Shown: positions 12,970-43,457, numbered from the stretch's first letter. The stretch: DNA of 64,000 nt from an uncultured Gammaproteobacteria bacterium (GCA_964616855.1 CAZTUJ010000001.1:256301-320300), one strand, 5' to 3'. Numbers and translations: made by a program. Notes: generated by a model from the sequence alone, not told the origin.

Positions 12970-13569
12970 ATGCTGGCTTTATTCCAAATCATCGTTTTAA
13001 TCTTTTCCGCCGTTATCCATGAGTATATGCACGGCTGGATGGCAGACCGTCTCGGTGACCCGACGGCCCGTAATGCTGGTCGTTTGACTTTGAATCCGAT
13101 CGCCCATCTGGAATGGTTCGGATCCTTGCTCTTACCGGGTATGATGCTCTTTGCGGGTATGCCCTTTGTTTTCGGCTGGGCTAAGCCTGTGCCTTATAAT
13201 CCTTATAACCTTCGTGACCGCCGCTGGGGCGACGCCAAGGTGGCCTTAGCCGGGCCAGCGGCTAACTTTGCCGTAGCCGTAGTTTTTGCTCTAATTTTAA
13301 GATTTTTACCTTTTATTAGCCTGACTTTTTCCGGCTTAATTGCTTTAATCGTTTATATCAACTTAATTTTAATGGTTTTTAACCTTTTACCCATTCCTCC
13401 TCTTGATGGTTCTAAAATTCTAGCCTCGTTTTTAAGCCCGGCTTGGCAGGAAAAATATCTAAGCCTAGAGCGTTTTGGCTTCATCCTAGTAATCCTTTTT
13501 GCCTGGCTGGGTTTCTCTTATATCTTACCGTTAATTGATGCTCTGTTTCGACTTTTAGCCGGGGTATAA
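12970..13569 (+). CDS. Site-2 protease family (M50) membrane zinc metalloprotease
   Basis: HEYMHG (HExxH) in the first TM helix and NLLPIPPLDGSK second motif. Multi-TM. AAGGAGG lies at 12948-12954. Confidence 0.85.
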   Translation: MLALFQIIVLIFSAVIHEYMHGWMADRLGDPTARNAGRLTLNPIAHLEWFGSLLLPGMMLFAGMPFVFGWAKPVPYNPYNLRDRRWGDAKVALAGPAANFAVAVVFALILRFLPFISLTFSGLIALIVYINLILMVFNLLPIPPLDGSKILASFLSPAWQEKYLSLERFGFILVILFAWLGFSYILPLIDALFRLLAGV

Positions 13570-13610
13570 GAGCAGTGGGAAAAATTTGTAGTGGTAATTC
13601 TTCGCTTATC

Positions 13611-13639
13611 TTGACTTATTTTTTTGATTTTGATAAAGT
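13611..13639 (+). promoter_or_regulatory. Putative promoter of the str operon
   Basis: TTGACT (13611-13616), a 17-nt spacer, then TAAAGT (13634-13639). Confidence 0.5.
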
Positions 13640-13655
13640 AAGCGAGTAATAACTC

Positions 13656-13781
13656 TATCCTGATGAGTCAGGATATTTTGTTATCACAAGAAATTGGTTT
13701 AATAAAAAAAGAGAGCGGTCAGGATAAGATCGTCCCTCTTTTTCCGGGCTCAAACCCTTTAATTTATAAAAATTATCCTGA
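13656..13781 (+). promoter_or_regulatory. rpsL leader element: four copies of an 8-mer in alternating orientation
   Basis: TATCCTGA at 13656-13663 and 13774-13781. Its complement TCAGGATA at 13668-13675 and 13719-13726. The first pair forms a perfect 8-bp hairpin/palindrome with a 4-nt loop. Confidence 0.5.
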
Positions 13782-13805
13782 GGTTTTAATAACCGCTGAA
13801 GCATT

Positions 13806-14231
13806 ATGCCGACAATCAATCAATTGGTCCGCAAGGGCAGAAAATCCAAAAGCCAGCGCCAGTCTTCTTTGGCTTTGCACACGAGCTTAGACTCGCTCCA
13901 TCGCAAAAAGAATGTTAACGCTAAAGGCGCTCCTTTCAAGCAGGGCGTTTGTATTAAAGTTACCACCACTACTCCGAAGAAACCGAACTCCGCTTTACGA
14001 AAAATTGCTCGTGTCCGTTTATCGAATGGCATGGAAGTTACGGCTTATATCCCGGGCATGGGCCACAATTTACAGGAACACTCCATCGTTTTAATTAAAG
14101 GTGGTAAGACTAAAGATCTTCCGGGTGTTCGCTATAAGATTGTCCGTGGTGTTTACGACGCCTCTGGTGTTGAAGCTCGCCGCAAAGGCCGCAGCTGCTA
14201 CGGCGCCAAGAGACCGAAAGCGGCTAAATAA
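13806..14231 (+). CDS. rpsL: 30S ribosomal protein S12
   Basis: [12 protein letters not shown] start and [19 protein letters not shown] motif. Confidence 0.97.
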
Positions 14232-14321
14232 TTTTGTTTATTTCGGAGAGGCATTTTTGCCCTCCTTCATATAATCAGGTGCGCATTAGTAATAGCTGTT
14301 GATGCGACCCTTCAAGCAATT

Positions 14322-14789
14322 ATGAGAGGAAAACAAGCCCCTAAGAGAGATATCGTCGGGGACAGTAAATACAACGATAAAAATATCACCAAACTGATCA
14401 ACTATGTGATGCAGGATGGTAAGAAGAGCGTTTCTGAAAGAATTGTCTATGGCTCTTTTAATTTGATTAAAGATAAGACGAAGCAGGACCCTCGCCATGT
14501 TTTTAACAAGGCGATGAAGAAAGTTTCTCCTTTGGTTGAAGTTCGCGGTAAACGTGTCGGCGGCGCCAACTATCAGGTGCCTTTTCAGGTTCGAGGCGAA
14601 CGTCGCTTTTATCTTGGTTGTCACTGGATGATTACGGCTGCTCATGCCCGCCGTGGTCGCTCCATGGCAGAAAAATTAGCCGGTGAAATTTTAGATGCTT
14701 CCAATGGTGAAGGCGCTGCGGTTAAGAAGAGGGAAGCTGTTCACAAGATGGCTGAAGCCAATAAAGCGTTCGCGCATTTTTCTCGATAA
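14322..14789 (+). CDS. rpsG: 30S ribosomal protein S7
   Basis: VSPLVEVRGKRVGGANYQVPFQV and a C-terminal AHFSR-type end. Sits between rpsL and fusA. Confidence 0.95.
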   Translation: MRGKQAPKRDIVGDSKYNDKNITKLINYVMQDGKKSVSERIVYGSFNLIKDKTKQDPRHVFNKAMKKVSPLVEVRGKRVGGANYQVPFQVRGERRFYLGCHWMITAAHARRGRSMAEKLAGEILDASNGEGAAVKKREAVHKMAEANKAFAHFSR

Positions 14790-16988: not shown

Positions 16989-17315
16989 ATGCGCGAACAA
17001 TTAAAAAAAGCTTTAAGATTAGCTAGAAAAACTAATGATGCCATCATCTTTTTCGATGCTGAGACGCCAGAAGATTCTTTTGCTATTATTGACCTTGACC
17101 GCTACGAAAATATGGTAAATCCGGCAACTTTAGATAAAAAAGAGGCAGTATTTAAGCCTAATTTGACAGAAGCAGATTTAGCTGATAAAATAAATCGCGA
17201 AATCTCTGAATGGAAAAATGAAGATAATGCCGAATATTTAGCTGAAGAAAGCAAAGCCCGTAAAAATTGGAATATCCCTCCACAGGTGAAGGATAAAGCG
17301 GAAAATAACTCTTAG
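16989..17315 (+). CDS. Hypothetical acidic protein inserted between fusA and tuf
   Basis: 108-aa ORF with no recognised motif. The N-terminal beta-strand pattern (AIIFFD...FAIIDLDRYENM) is faintly Phd/YefM-like. Confidence 0.5.
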   Translation: MREQLKKALRLARKTNDAIIFFDAETPEDSFAIIDLDRYENMVNPATLDKKEAVFKPNLTEADLADKINREISEWKNEDNAEYLAEESKARKNWNIPPQVKDKAENNS

Positions 17316-19015: not shown

Positions 19016-19191
19016 AATACAATCAAATATTGATTAAGTGCCGCCAAGGCGTTAACTTGTAACTCTTCTCTAATTTTATTGAAGAAAGTGCAAGTAGATA
19101 AATTTGCGGCTTATTGGGAGAAAACAGCAAAAAAACAAACAAAAAATTGAGGGCAAGGAGGAGATGCACAATTTTAGCTTTTGTTTTTAAG

Positions 19192-19218
19192 CTGGTAAAT
19201 TTACCAGTTTTTTGTTTT
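19192..19218 (+). terminator. Terminator/attenuator-like hairpin in the rpsJ-rplC spacer
   Basis: CTGGTA-aatt-TACCAG followed by TTTTTTGTTTT. An overlapping alternative pairing is AGCTT (19176-19180) with AAGCT (19189-19193). Confidence 0.4.
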
Positions 19219-19225
19219 AAAAAAT

Positions 19226-30067: not shown

Positions 30068-30094
30068 TCTTAAAATTTTCTTAAAAATGATAAC

Positions 30095-30122
30095 AAAAAT
30101 GTAGCTTCAGCTACATTTTTGT
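30095..30122 (+). terminator. Rho-independent terminator after secY
   Basis: AAAAATGTAGC-ttca-GCTACATTTTT perfect stem with a T-run. Confidence 0.8.
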
Positions 30123-42117: not shown

Positions 42118-42125
42118 ATAAATCT

Positions 42126-43457
42126 ATGGCTACTAGCAAAAAAAACAACAAGAAGGGCAAGGCGCCGGTGAAAAAGGCTCCGGCTAAAAAAGCGCCCATC
42201 AAGAAAAAAGCCCCGGTCAAAAAAGCTGCTGTCAAAAAGACGGTGGCTAAAAAAGTGGTGGCCAAAAAGCCCTTAGCTAAAAAAGCCCCGGTCAAGAAGG
42301 CTCCACTGAAGAAAGCGCCGGTAAAGGCGGTGGTGAAAGCCAAGCTGCCGGAAAGACCGCCGCGCGAAGTGGTGCAGCCCAATGAAGAACAGTTGAAGAA
42401 GCTTTTAGAAAAAGGCCGTCTTCGTGGTTTTGTCACGGAAACGGAATTACTATATCTTTTCCCCGAAGTCGAAGAGTATGTTTATGAATATGATGTCTTT
42501 TTAGGGGATTTACAAAAGAACGGCATCCGCATTGCTGAAGATTCCGGTCGGATTTTAGATGTGCAGGAAAAGAATCCCAACATTACCTCGGCGAAAGCCG
42601 CGGCCGCCGTTACCTTCGACCTCTCTAAACTTAGCGCCGACTCCATTCAGATGTATTTGAAAGAAATTGGCAAAGTGCCTTTGCTTAGTGGTGATGAAGA
42701 AGTGGAGCTAGCCAAGAGAAAAGAAAAGGGAGATAAAGAAGCAGAAAAAAAGATTATTGAAGCTAACCTCCGTTTGGTGGTTTCCATTGCTAAGAAGTTT
42801 GCCGGCGCTAAAGGTTTGAGTCTTTTAGATTTAATTCAGGAAGGTAATATTGGTTTGTTTAGAGCGGTAGAAAAATTTGAATATCGCAAGGGCTATAAGT
42901 TCTCCACCTACGCTACCTGGTGGATTCGTCAGGCCATCACCCGCGCTTTAGCCGATCAGAGCCGCACCATCCGTATTCCCGTGCATATGGTGGAAACGAT
43001 TAATAAGTTCCAGCAAGTGCAACGCACTTTAATTCAGGAATTAGGCCGAGAGCCCCTAGCGGAAGAAATTGCTGCCGAAATGGGAGAAGATATTGAAAAG
43101 GTGCGCTATATTATCAAGATTTCTCAAGATACGATTTCTCTAGAAACTAGTATCGGTGATGATGAAGAAGATTCCACTCTGGAAGATTTTATTGAAGATG
43201 TTAAAAATGTCACTCCGGATAGAGCTGCCGCTTTGCAATTGCTTAGAGACTATGTCAAAAATATTGTGGCTCAACTCTCTCCGCGTGAACAGAAGATTTT
43301 AGAGATGCGTTTCGGTTTGGCCGATGGCGTGGCTCATACTTTAGAAGAAGTGGGTCAGGAATTTGAAGTGACGCGCGAACGTATCCGTCAGATTGAAAGC
43401 AAGGCTTTAGAAAAAATCAGGAAGCTCAAAGGCTTGGAGAAGCTGAGAGACTACTAA
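42126..43457 (+). CDS. rpoD: RNA polymerase sigma factor RpoD (sigma70) with Lys/Ala/Pro-rich N-terminal tail
   Basis: Region 2 [18 protein letters not shown], region 3, and region 4.2 [24 protein letters not shown]. Confidence 0.93.
42150..42340 (+). repeat. In-frame Lys/Ala/Pro codon repeats (KKAPxKK units) at the rpoD 5' end
   Basis: Translated as [59 protein letters not shown] mirrored low-complexity ORF appears on the opposite strand. Confidence 0.8.

Follow-up and report, generated by a model that had tools for sequence, protein, structure and literature searches.

A terminator-like hairpin at the head of the str operon in a Falkowbacteria-like lineage of Patescibacteria: a candidate promoter-proximal attenuator

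What do four copies of one 8-mer do in the leader of a ribosomal-protein operon? In the stretch of DNA studied here (CAZTUJ010000001.1:256301-320300, 64,000 nucleotides, called the window throughout), the 5' leader of rpsL, the first gene of the str operon, contains four such copies in alternating orientation. A first-pass annotation of this DNA, made from the sequence alone, had read them as the geometry of mutually exclusive RNA structures and had also seen an operator-like DNA palindrome in the first two. We find that copies 1 and 2 form a hairpin, named T1, whose pairing is kept by compensating changes in orthologous leaders of uncultivated, ultra-small bacteria and which is directly followed by a conserved U-tract. 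We think that T1 and its U-tract constitute a promoter-proximal, intrinsic-terminator-like attenuator in the str operon 5' leader of a Falkowbacteria-like Patescibacteria lineage, and we give this reading a probability of about 0.55. The source organism is a Patescibacteria (candidate phyla radiation, CPR) bacterium near Candidatus Falkowbacteria; the nearest homologues of the S12 protein encoded by rpsL in the window are proteins from metagenome-assembled genomes (MAGs) of Patescibacteria / Candidatus Falkowbacteria. The features on which the argument turns are these.

13611-13639, + strand: rpsL (str operon) promoter, with the -35 element TTGACT at 13611-13616, a 17-nt spacer and the extended -10 element TGATAAAGT at 13631-13639
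13656-13675, + strand: T1, the hairpin of copies 1 and 2 (8 bp, 4-nt loop), TATCCTGA-TGAG-TCAGGATA (from folding and orthologue covariation)
13676-13686, + strand: U-tract and conserved tail UUUUGUUAUCA, directly 3' of T1 (from alignment columns)
13806-14231, + strand: rpsL, encoding ribosomal protein S12 (141 aa, Pfam PF00164), first gene of rpsL-rpsG-fusA-(108-aa open reading frame, ORF)-tuf-rpsJ

The cluster of four copies is real and not a product of chance. The 8-mer TATCCTGA occurs on the + strand at 13656-13663 (copy 1) and 13774-13781 (copy 4), and its complement TCAGGATA gives copies 2 (13668-13675) and 3 (13719-13726), both on the - strand; copies 3 and 4 reach 9 nt (TCAGGATAA and TTATCCTGA). 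All four coordinates in the first-pass annotation proved exact, as did its claim that the motif is found nowhere else in the window: the whole 64 kb holds just four matches to the 8-mer or its complement, all inside 13656-13781, and shuffled windows hold 1.6 matches to the 8-mer, scattered across their full length. When we scanned for any 8-mer family with at least four non-overlapping copies within 130 nt, the window yielded, besides the rpsL-leader cluster, a single further one, which is a coding repeat of low complexity (AAAAAAGC at 42186-42279), and no cluster of comparable complexity appeared in 200 shuffles. The promoter proposed earlier (TTGACT/TAAAGT, 13611-13639) was recovered by a promoter scan, which also found a TG preceding the second hexamer; the predicted start site is at about 13646, and the rpsL ATG at 13806 was confirmed. 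The -35 region (13607-13615) reads TATCTTGAC, with one mismatch against the 8-mer TATCCTGA, and can be counted as a degenerate fifth copy. An imperfect inverted repeat, GTAATTCTTCGCTTA / TAAGCGAGTAATAAC (13594-13653), flanks the promoter; two orthologous leaders (L105 and L110) do not have this bracket.

The hairpin of copies 1 and 2 had been described correctly as a perfect 8-bp helix with a 4-nt loop, and the orthologue comparison given below indicates an RNA hairpin under selection. Its folding energy is -8.7 kcal/mol, and a lower stem pairing about 13646-13653 with 13680-13687 may lengthen it. The minimum free energy (MFE) fold of 13640-13810 (z = -2.9) contains T1 and three further hairpins downstream, T2, P3 and P4; the pairs of T1 have probabilities of 0.78-0.99, seven of the eight being at or above 0.9 and the eighth at 0.78. 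What had been missed is the sequence UUUUGUU directly 3' of this hairpin, which gives it the shape of a terminator. A terminator scan of the leader lists two sites, namely the 1:2 hairpin followed by TTTTGTTATC and the hairpin of copy 3 followed by CCCTCTTTTT. The gene-end terminators of the window consist of a stem followed by UUUUGUUU or UUUUUGUU and range from -8 to -20 kcal/mol; T1, at -8.7 kcal/mol, lies at the weak end of this range and has the same kind of tail.

The element is also specific to its place. A covariance model of it (R1), run on the 64 kb, found the rpsL leader as its sole significant match on the + strand, and its only other match below E 0.1 (E 0.02) was the minus-strand mirror of the same bases. 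This specificity holds within a window that also contains the S10 operon (rpsJ, rplC) and, downstream of the S10 operon genes, probably further ribosomal-protein genes. The exact sequence ATCCTGA-N4-TCAGGAT occurs once per locus in all 43 rpsL loci that carry it. A mobile element, such as a miniature inverted-repeat transposable element (MITE), was considered and rejected: each rpsL locus has a single copy, and no others occur in the rest of the 64 kb or of the fetched loci. A palindrome scan of viral contigs returned 18 unrelated matches, apparently chance palindromes without a U-tract. The motif TTTTGTTATCA has a second exact match in the window (30088-30098, - strand), which turned out to be the back of an ordinary bidirectional terminator and not a related element.

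Orthologous leaders were collected by two independent routes. The first consisted of exact-protein look-ups of S12 variants 87-100% identical, to which a genome scan with the whole S12 protein was added; among the matches listed in that scan, which responds to universal peptides, most came from Firmicutes and other phyla, and the useful loci were only two (L001 and L067). The second was a metagenome scan with the promoter pattern alone, TTGACWTAT-N9-TTTGNTAAANT, the downstream sequence being left free. It gave 120 matches, 11 of which precede rpsL according to an automatic screen, and inspection of the sequences added four more (L122, L172, L223 and the truncated L228). Leaders retrieved only by way of the S12 protein (L001, L067, L105, L110 and L113) likewise have the promoter motif TTGACTTAT-N9-TTTGNTAAANT. 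Elsewhere in the window TTGACTTAT is not more frequent than expected by chance, and other genes that have the same promoter type in metagenomes (e.g. rplU in L161) lack the hairpin. In essentially every recovered leader, a short hairpin followed by a U-run stands 13-29 nt past the -10 element.

An alignment of 21 distinct leader sequences made with MAFFT (A3) shows how this hairpin is maintained. Standard pairs fill 94.5% of the T1 pair cells, and compensating changes are found in the arms of T1, that is in copies 1 and 2, with six of the seven aligned pairs changed on both sides. None of 500 shuffles reaches the alignment on any of five measures, and sliding the 3' arm by 1-3 columns lowers the pairing to 28-52%. 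The stems found in individual leaders differ as follows.

ATCCTGA / TCAGGAT: the window and many others
ATCCCGA / TCGGGAT: L151
ATCCCGA / TCGGGGT (G·U): L206, L218
GTCCTGG / CCAGGAC: L122
ATCCTTG / CAAGGAT: L241
AACCTTT / GAGGGTT (three G·U): L001
TCTCGA / TCGAGA: L223
CCCG / CGGG: L067

The tail is conserved along with the stem. Columns 30-33, just after it, are T in 20, 21, 20 and 17 of the 21 sequences, including leaders that have no A-rich 5' flank, and a U-run of at least four begins 2-3 nt past the stem in 17-21 of them, independently of how A-rich the upstream sequence is.

These data bear directly on whether the palindrome works as DNA. If 13656-13675 were a 20-bp operator for a dimeric repressor, it would lie at +10 to +30, with further half-sites at copies 3 and 4; the palindrome is indeed perfect and its position operator-like, the stem ATCCTGA is kept across fairly distant leaders, and the related sequence TATCTTGAC overlaps the -35 element. 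However, the helix is kept only through G·U pairs of the + strand in five lineages (L206, L218, L001, L225 and L223), which as DNA are mismatched half-sites. The alignment contains several G·U or U·G cells, and its sole A·C cell (in L241) is an artefact, as the seventh pair of that leader falls in an inserted column. Because wobble pairs are present and real A·C mismatches are not, the helix works only as RNA of the + strand, which speaks against a DNA palindrome and against RNA of the minus strand. Moreover, the loop varies in length from 3 to 6 nt, the conserved U-tract is strand-specific, the stem sequence is wholly different in L001, L067, L223 and L207, and there is no other copy in the 64 kb. 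The operator offered by the first-pass annotation is thus scarcely credible.

Where the hairpin stands in the leader is informative as well. From hairpin to ATG there are between 15 nt (L149) and 134 nt (L206), with 130 nt in the window, whereas the distance from promoter to hairpin is 13-29 nt throughout; with the one distance constrained and the other variable, it is the promoter and the 5' end of the transcript to which T1 is tied, and the ribosome-binding site plays no part in its placing. A short leader such as that of L149, with 15 nt from the end of the hairpin to the ATG, could not accommodate a later promoter, so the rpsL mRNA must contain the hairpin.

The gene upstream raises another question, namely whether T1 simply belongs to it.

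12970-13569, + strand: M50-family membrane peptidase gene (Pfam PF02163)

The order of genes in this part of the window is a prfB-like release factor gene, comEC, a short minus-strand ORF, the M50 peptidase gene, a 236-nt spacer, rpsL, rpsG, fusA, the 108-aa ORF, tuf and rpsJ, and the M50-rpsL synteny is kept in most relatives. The M50 gene has no terminator of its own before the rpsL promoter; the first terminator-like hairpin past its stop codon, 87 nt downstream, is T1. One could therefore suppose that T1 is the intrinsic terminator of the M50 gene, that in a compact genome the rpsL promoter happens to lie between the M50 stop codon and this terminator, and that T1 has no role for rpsL. This would fit with the M50 gene being upstream and co-directional in most loci with no other terminator before T1, and with the resemblance of T1 to the other gene-end terminators of this genome. 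On the other hand, the upstream gene is usually, and not always, a co-directional M50 gene: L122 and L162 have the hairpin even though the gene nearest to it upstream lies on the opposite strand, which means that serving as a neighbour's terminator is not its only role. The distance between hairpin and promoter is, in addition, held to 13-29 nt, and a working terminator placed after a promoter necessarily acts on rpsL transcripts too. We regard a mere M50 terminator as quite improbable.

How, then, could T1 act? We infer that transcription terminates there in part, that this termination is regulated, and which factors may be involved, and the scheme is as follows. RNA polymerase would start at about 13646, complete T1 at about +30 and complete the U-tract at about +37. 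There some of the complexes would pause or terminate, and the remainder would read through into rpsL-rpsG-fusA-tuf. No more than about 10 nt of RNA are made ahead of T1, and the decision to terminate falls before copies 3 and 4 have been transcribed, so that an antiterminator of the usual kind is impossible for T1. Since the hairpin is weak and no upstream antiterminator can form, the read-through fraction would most likely be set by a trans-acting factor, possible ones being a ribosomal protein, for instance S7 or S12, and NusA/NusG, for which T1 would be a weak terminator to act on. T1 would also stop M50 transcripts where the M50 gene is co-directional.

Several observations weigh against an attenuator. 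The hairpins are weak, -8.7 kcal/mol in the window within a range of -3.6 to -10 kcal/mol, some orthologues having only -3.6 to -5.5. The start site and any termination are predictions. One or two bases other than U often stand between stem and U-run, and in many lineages an A-rich 5' flank can pair with the U-tract, so part of the U conservation could serve a longer hairpin and not termination. A terminator on a very highly expressed operon needs to be overcome, and no means for this is visible in the sequence. The clearest exception to the conservation is L153, and L134 is weak; both have only poor equivalents of the hairpin. Finally, the set of 21 sequences was trimmed by hand around the hairpin, and its first 12 were picked with a regular expression that required pairing.

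Some of these points lead to the alternative that we take most seriously, a conserved RNA hairpin that does not terminate anything. It could be a ribosomal-protein site for translation control, a stabiliser against RNases that depend on the 5' end, or a pause site, and its U-rich tail would then be a lower stem or a landing site for S1 or the ribosome. Classical ribosomal-protein autoregulation works via leader hairpins, and such a reading is in line with the weakness of the hairpins, with the A-rich flanks able to pair with the U-tract in many lineages, and with short leaders in which no more than 15-40 nt lie between the end of the hairpin and an ATG lacking a Shine-Dalgarno sequence. It sits less well with the lengthened leader, in which 130 nt separate hairpin and start codon and the hairpin has remained with the promoter. 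Furthermore, the hairpin begins about 8-23 nt past the predicted start site, while stabilisers are usually found at the very 5' end, and the U-tract is kept without an A-rich partner in L122, L223 and L218. We consider this alternative possible, though it would not be our choice.

As to the start codon itself, rpsL in the window has no recognisable Shine-Dalgarno sequence but only GAAG, 4 nt before the ATG (13798-13805), and many relatives have pure A/U before the rpsL ATG (leaders L113, L149 and L151 were looked at). A GAGG that adjoins copy 4 lies 22 nt upstream of the ATG.

It remains to ask what copies 3 and 4 contribute. They lie in a part of the leader that also holds the other hairpins of the fold.

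13706-13743, + strand: T2, second terminator-like hairpin, -12.5 kcal/mol (from folding)
13746-13757, + strand: P3, small hairpin GGG-CUCAAA-CCC (from folding)
13773-13781, + strand: copy 4, UUAUCCUGA, adjoining GAGG at 13780-13783 (from the repeat search)
13782-13794, + strand: P4, hairpin GGUU-UUAAU-AACC between copy 4 and the start codon (from folding)

T2 has a lower stem AAAAAGAG/CUCUUUUU and an upper stem GCGGUC/GAUCGU, and its apical loop AGGAUAA with the closing UC is copy 3 (13719-13727); that copy 3 is nothing other than the loop and two closing bases of this second hairpin had escaped the first-pass annotation. In L082, L096, L097, L107 and L108 the 3' arm of T2 has changed without any loss of pairing (G·U to G-C, U-A to U·G), and L110 keeps the lower stem with the apical part, copy 3 included, replaced; the entire T2-P3 module is missing from L105 and L239. 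From these sequences, T2 itself looks selected. P3 takes the form GGGC-UUUUU-GCCC in L096/L097 and GGGG-UACG-CCCC in L107-L109, the fourth pair changing from C-G to G-C, and at the position of P4 there is a hairpin with a different loop in L237 (GGUUUUCAAAACC) and L105 (GGUUUACAACC). RNAalifold, applied to 12 long and short leaders of the window's clade, kept T1 and P4 and dropped T2 and P3. It did so because L105, L110 and L237 break the alignment, and the support for T2 and P3 therefore comes from direct reading of the sequences.

An exact copy 3 is confined to the window's own clade and to L108/L109. In L096/L097 an insertion interrupts it (TCAAGGATA), and neither copy 1 nor copy 4 has changed to match; an equally uncompensated substitution alters it in L107 (TCAAGATA), whose sisters L108 and L109 are intact; its site is occupied by AU-rich sequence in L110 and by GGUAAAU in L237, and it is absent in L105, L110, L237 and L239-L241. 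Judged by these comparisons, copy 3 is not selected as an 8-mer. Copy 4 is complementary to copy 3 over 9 bp; its best partner is copy 2 with the T1 U-tract (11 of 12 nt, with the AAA flank). The block containing it, TTATCCTGAGGTTTT, is invariant in the window, L096, L107 and L237 clades despite differing flanks, even though L237 lacks copy 3, so some selection on the copy 4 block is apparent in these alignments. Of copy 4, L105 retains TTATCCGG, L110, L113 and L239-L241 retain nothing, and it is missing wherever the leader is short.

The first-pass annotation had proposed that the four 8-mers form mutually exclusive helices, 1:2 with 3:4 against 1:3 or 2:4, which would correspond to a terminating or closed state and a read-through or open state; a variant of this model would have one 8-bp helix presented at two places, in T1 and, near the start codon, in 2:4 or 3:4. 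Four exact copies in 126 nt cannot be chance, 3:4 pairs over 9 bp and 2:4 over 11 of 12 nt, and a 1:3 helix would exclude T2. Copy 4 with its GAGGTTTT flank is, moreover, invariant in four sublineages with differing neighbours, including L237 that has no copy 3, and candidate antiterminators were described for other rpsL leaders by Naville and Gautheret (PMC2965389). Yet copy 3 was disrupted on two independent occasions with nothing to compensate, most relatives lack it, and L110 has T2 but not copy 3; none of the short leaders has copy 3 or 4, and these leaders retain T1. Forcing 3:4, 2:4 and 1:3 costs +5.7, +4.2 and +10.3 kcal/mol, with probabilities below 1%. Copies 3 and 4 are made after RNA polymerase passes T1 and cannot therefore be its antiterminator; and the alternative pairings are without covariation, being unscorable because the 8-mers are either identical or broken. 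In addition, 1:3 together with 2:4 is a pseudoknot and not a simple alternative fold, a point that had been passed over. As the proposed geometry is not conserved in orthologues and its alternative folds are costlier by 4.2-10.3 kcal/mol, a four-part switch appears improbable. Of the earlier idea of an attenuator, what stands is a transcribed rpsL leader with a conserved promoter, an RNA hairpin and a precedent in the literature (PMC2965389); what falls is the four-part switch.

In the window's sublineage the leader is longer by about 90 nt, which hold T2, P3, P4 and the two extra copies of T1 arms. Copy 4 stands 25 nt ahead of the ATG, and RNA polymerase reaches it 100 nt after T1. Our conclusion is that the four copies came together recently and in one clade, copies 3 and 4 being probably derived from T1 sequence that was duplicated locally. 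A comparison of the hairpin TATCCTGAGG[ATTCAGGATTG]TTTTAATA in L119 with TATCCTGAGGTTTTAATA in the window is suggestive of copy 4 being a relic of a duplicated T1 that lost its 3' arm by deletion, the sequences compared being short. The extra copies would add at most a secondary long-range pairing, and a long-range helix near the start codon is possible.

This brings up a speculative combination of the two levels of control. The same 8-bp helix, UAUCCUGA/UCAGGAUA, might be presented twice, once in T1 and once by copy 4 with copy 2 or 3, 25 nt before the ATG, and a single ribosomal protein (S7 or S12) might thereby control both termination and translation, by analogy with L4 on the E. coli S10 leader; recognition might perhaps rely on resemblance to the 5' end of 16S rRNA. 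The T1 stem AUCCUG/CAGGAU presumably corresponds to a potential hairpin at many bacterial 16S 5' ends (AUCCUGGCUCAGGAU, in the region of the 27F primer); a search of the fetched loci for a 16S 5' end found none. L122 and L162 read CCUGGC...CAGG here. We would call this combination a long shot.

Returning to the attenuator, it can be compared with what is known of rpsL leaders. The genomes of Patescibacteria are tiny, hardly any regulators can be recognised in them, and the balancing of their ribosome production has, as far as we know, scarcely been described. A search of the literature on attenuation or leaders in this phylum found nothing relevant. The principle itself is not new, since few bacterial attenuators are predicted as commonly as premature terminators ahead of rpsL. 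In the survey of Naville and Gautheret (2010), rpsL is near the top of the genes preceded by premature terminators; its leader is called "multiform", having no common sequence or structure across phyla, and the authors asked whether S7 or other proteins are the effectors (PMC2965389). Attenuators of rpsL had been predicted in 24 species by Merino and Yanofsky in 2005 (PMC2965389). The element in the window resembles these leaders in having a terminator hairpin and a T-stretch between promoter and rpsL at the head of rpsL-rpsG-fusA-tuf, in being conserved inside clades with no sequence or structure common between phyla, and in having S7 or another protein as the suspected effector.

The order of promoter (13611-13639), T1 (13656-13686) and ATG (13806) is the same in all recovered leaders, the terminator scan recognises both T1 and T2, weak as the hairpins are, and the element is conserved among related species (21 leaders). 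An overlapping antiterminator was not found: the candidate for T2, the 1:3 helix, costs +10.3 kcal/mol and involves copy 3, which is not conserved. Each of the published rpsL leaders (Listeria, Xanthomonas, Pseudomonas, Rickettsia) has a candidate antiterminator (PMC2965389), whereas T1 begins about 10-20 nt into the transcript, so that none can form upstream of it. Antiterminators were reported for those examples and not made a criterion (PMC2965389). Two further differences are the Patescibacteria lineage, which lies outside the coverage of the published studies, and the two tandem terminator-like hairpins in the window's clade. The element is, in our opinion, a member of the known rpsL-leader attenuator class in a phylum where the class had not been described. 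It is a cis-element, covarying across many lineages, at the head of the main translation operon of Patescibacteria, and it extends the idea of a "multiform rpsL-leader" attenuator to a deep bacterial radiation.

Other structured leaders are more remote. An Rfam search, which the first-pass annotation had suggested, matched no ribosomal-protein leader family: at gathering level over the whole window it gave only noise and no such leader, including rpsL_psuedo and rpsL_ricks, and the same was true of 13560-14340 at E up to 10. The Rfam families rpsL_psuedo and rpsL_ricks and the Pelagibacter rpsL motif (PMC2704228) are likewise structured RNAs in the rpsL 5' UTR with a presumed role in the control of ribosomal-protein synthesis, but in the Pelagibacter motif (Meyer et al. 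2009, PMC2704228) three stems meet in a junction and there is no terminator, unlike the single hairpin with U-tract described here. The E. coli S7 translational operator shares with T1 the str operon and the presumed feedback purpose; in contrast, it lies between rpsL and rpsG and acts on translation, whereas T1 is upstream of rpsL and adjoins the promoter. An S7 operator is, besides, impossible in some relatives, the rpsL-rpsG spacer of L113 being 16 nt. In the leader of the E. coli S10 operon, L4 with NusA raises termination and also represses translation through the same leader, and the infC leader of B. subtilis contains a terminator controlled by L20. These two are alike by analogy only, in that a ribosomal protein would raise leader termination with no metabolite sensor involved; the operon is different, there is no similarity of sequence or structure, and the effector in the window is only a candidate.

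Two more identities were tried for the leader and rejected. The loop region of T1 reads CUGAUGAG, which recalls a hammerhead ribozyme, whose core is CUGAUGA...GAAA with three stems; no Rfam hammerhead matched at E up to 10, and the orthologue loops vary (UGGG, UUAU, CUAU, GGAU and others). An ATG at 13663 opens a 75-codon ORF that runs into rpsL, as in a leader-peptide attenuator; this ATG is absent in most orthologues (loops TTAT, GGAT, ATAA and others).

Some minor observations concern the genes around the leader. The S12 of the window, with 141 aa, has an extra segment near residues 17-45 that is common to Falkowbacteria-like homologues (139-146 aa); E. coli S12 has 124 aa and is thus about 17 residues shorter. 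The 90-nt rpsL-rpsG spacer (14232-14321) folds as two hairpins, one of them GGAGAGGCAUUUUUGCCCUCC and the other a stem of 10 bp at about 14282-14306 (z = -2.1). In E. coli the S7 operator occupies this position, and since the spacer is only 16 nt in L113, any S7 site there would be lineage-specific. Between fusA and tuf, in an otherwise canonical str operon, stands the 108-aa ORF (16989-17315), which has no Pfam match. The rpsJ-rplC spacer is unusually long (210 nt, 19016-19225) and contains a terminator-like hairpin at 19189-19210, AAGCUGGUAAAUUUACCAGUUU then UUUGUUUU, 16 nt before the rplC start, which may be another intra-operon attenuator. Lastly, the coding repeat met in the cluster scan belongs to a region (42120-42340) of KKAP/KKAV units, with AAAAAAGC four times, and suggests a lysine/alanine-rich, histone-H1-like or DNA-binding protein.

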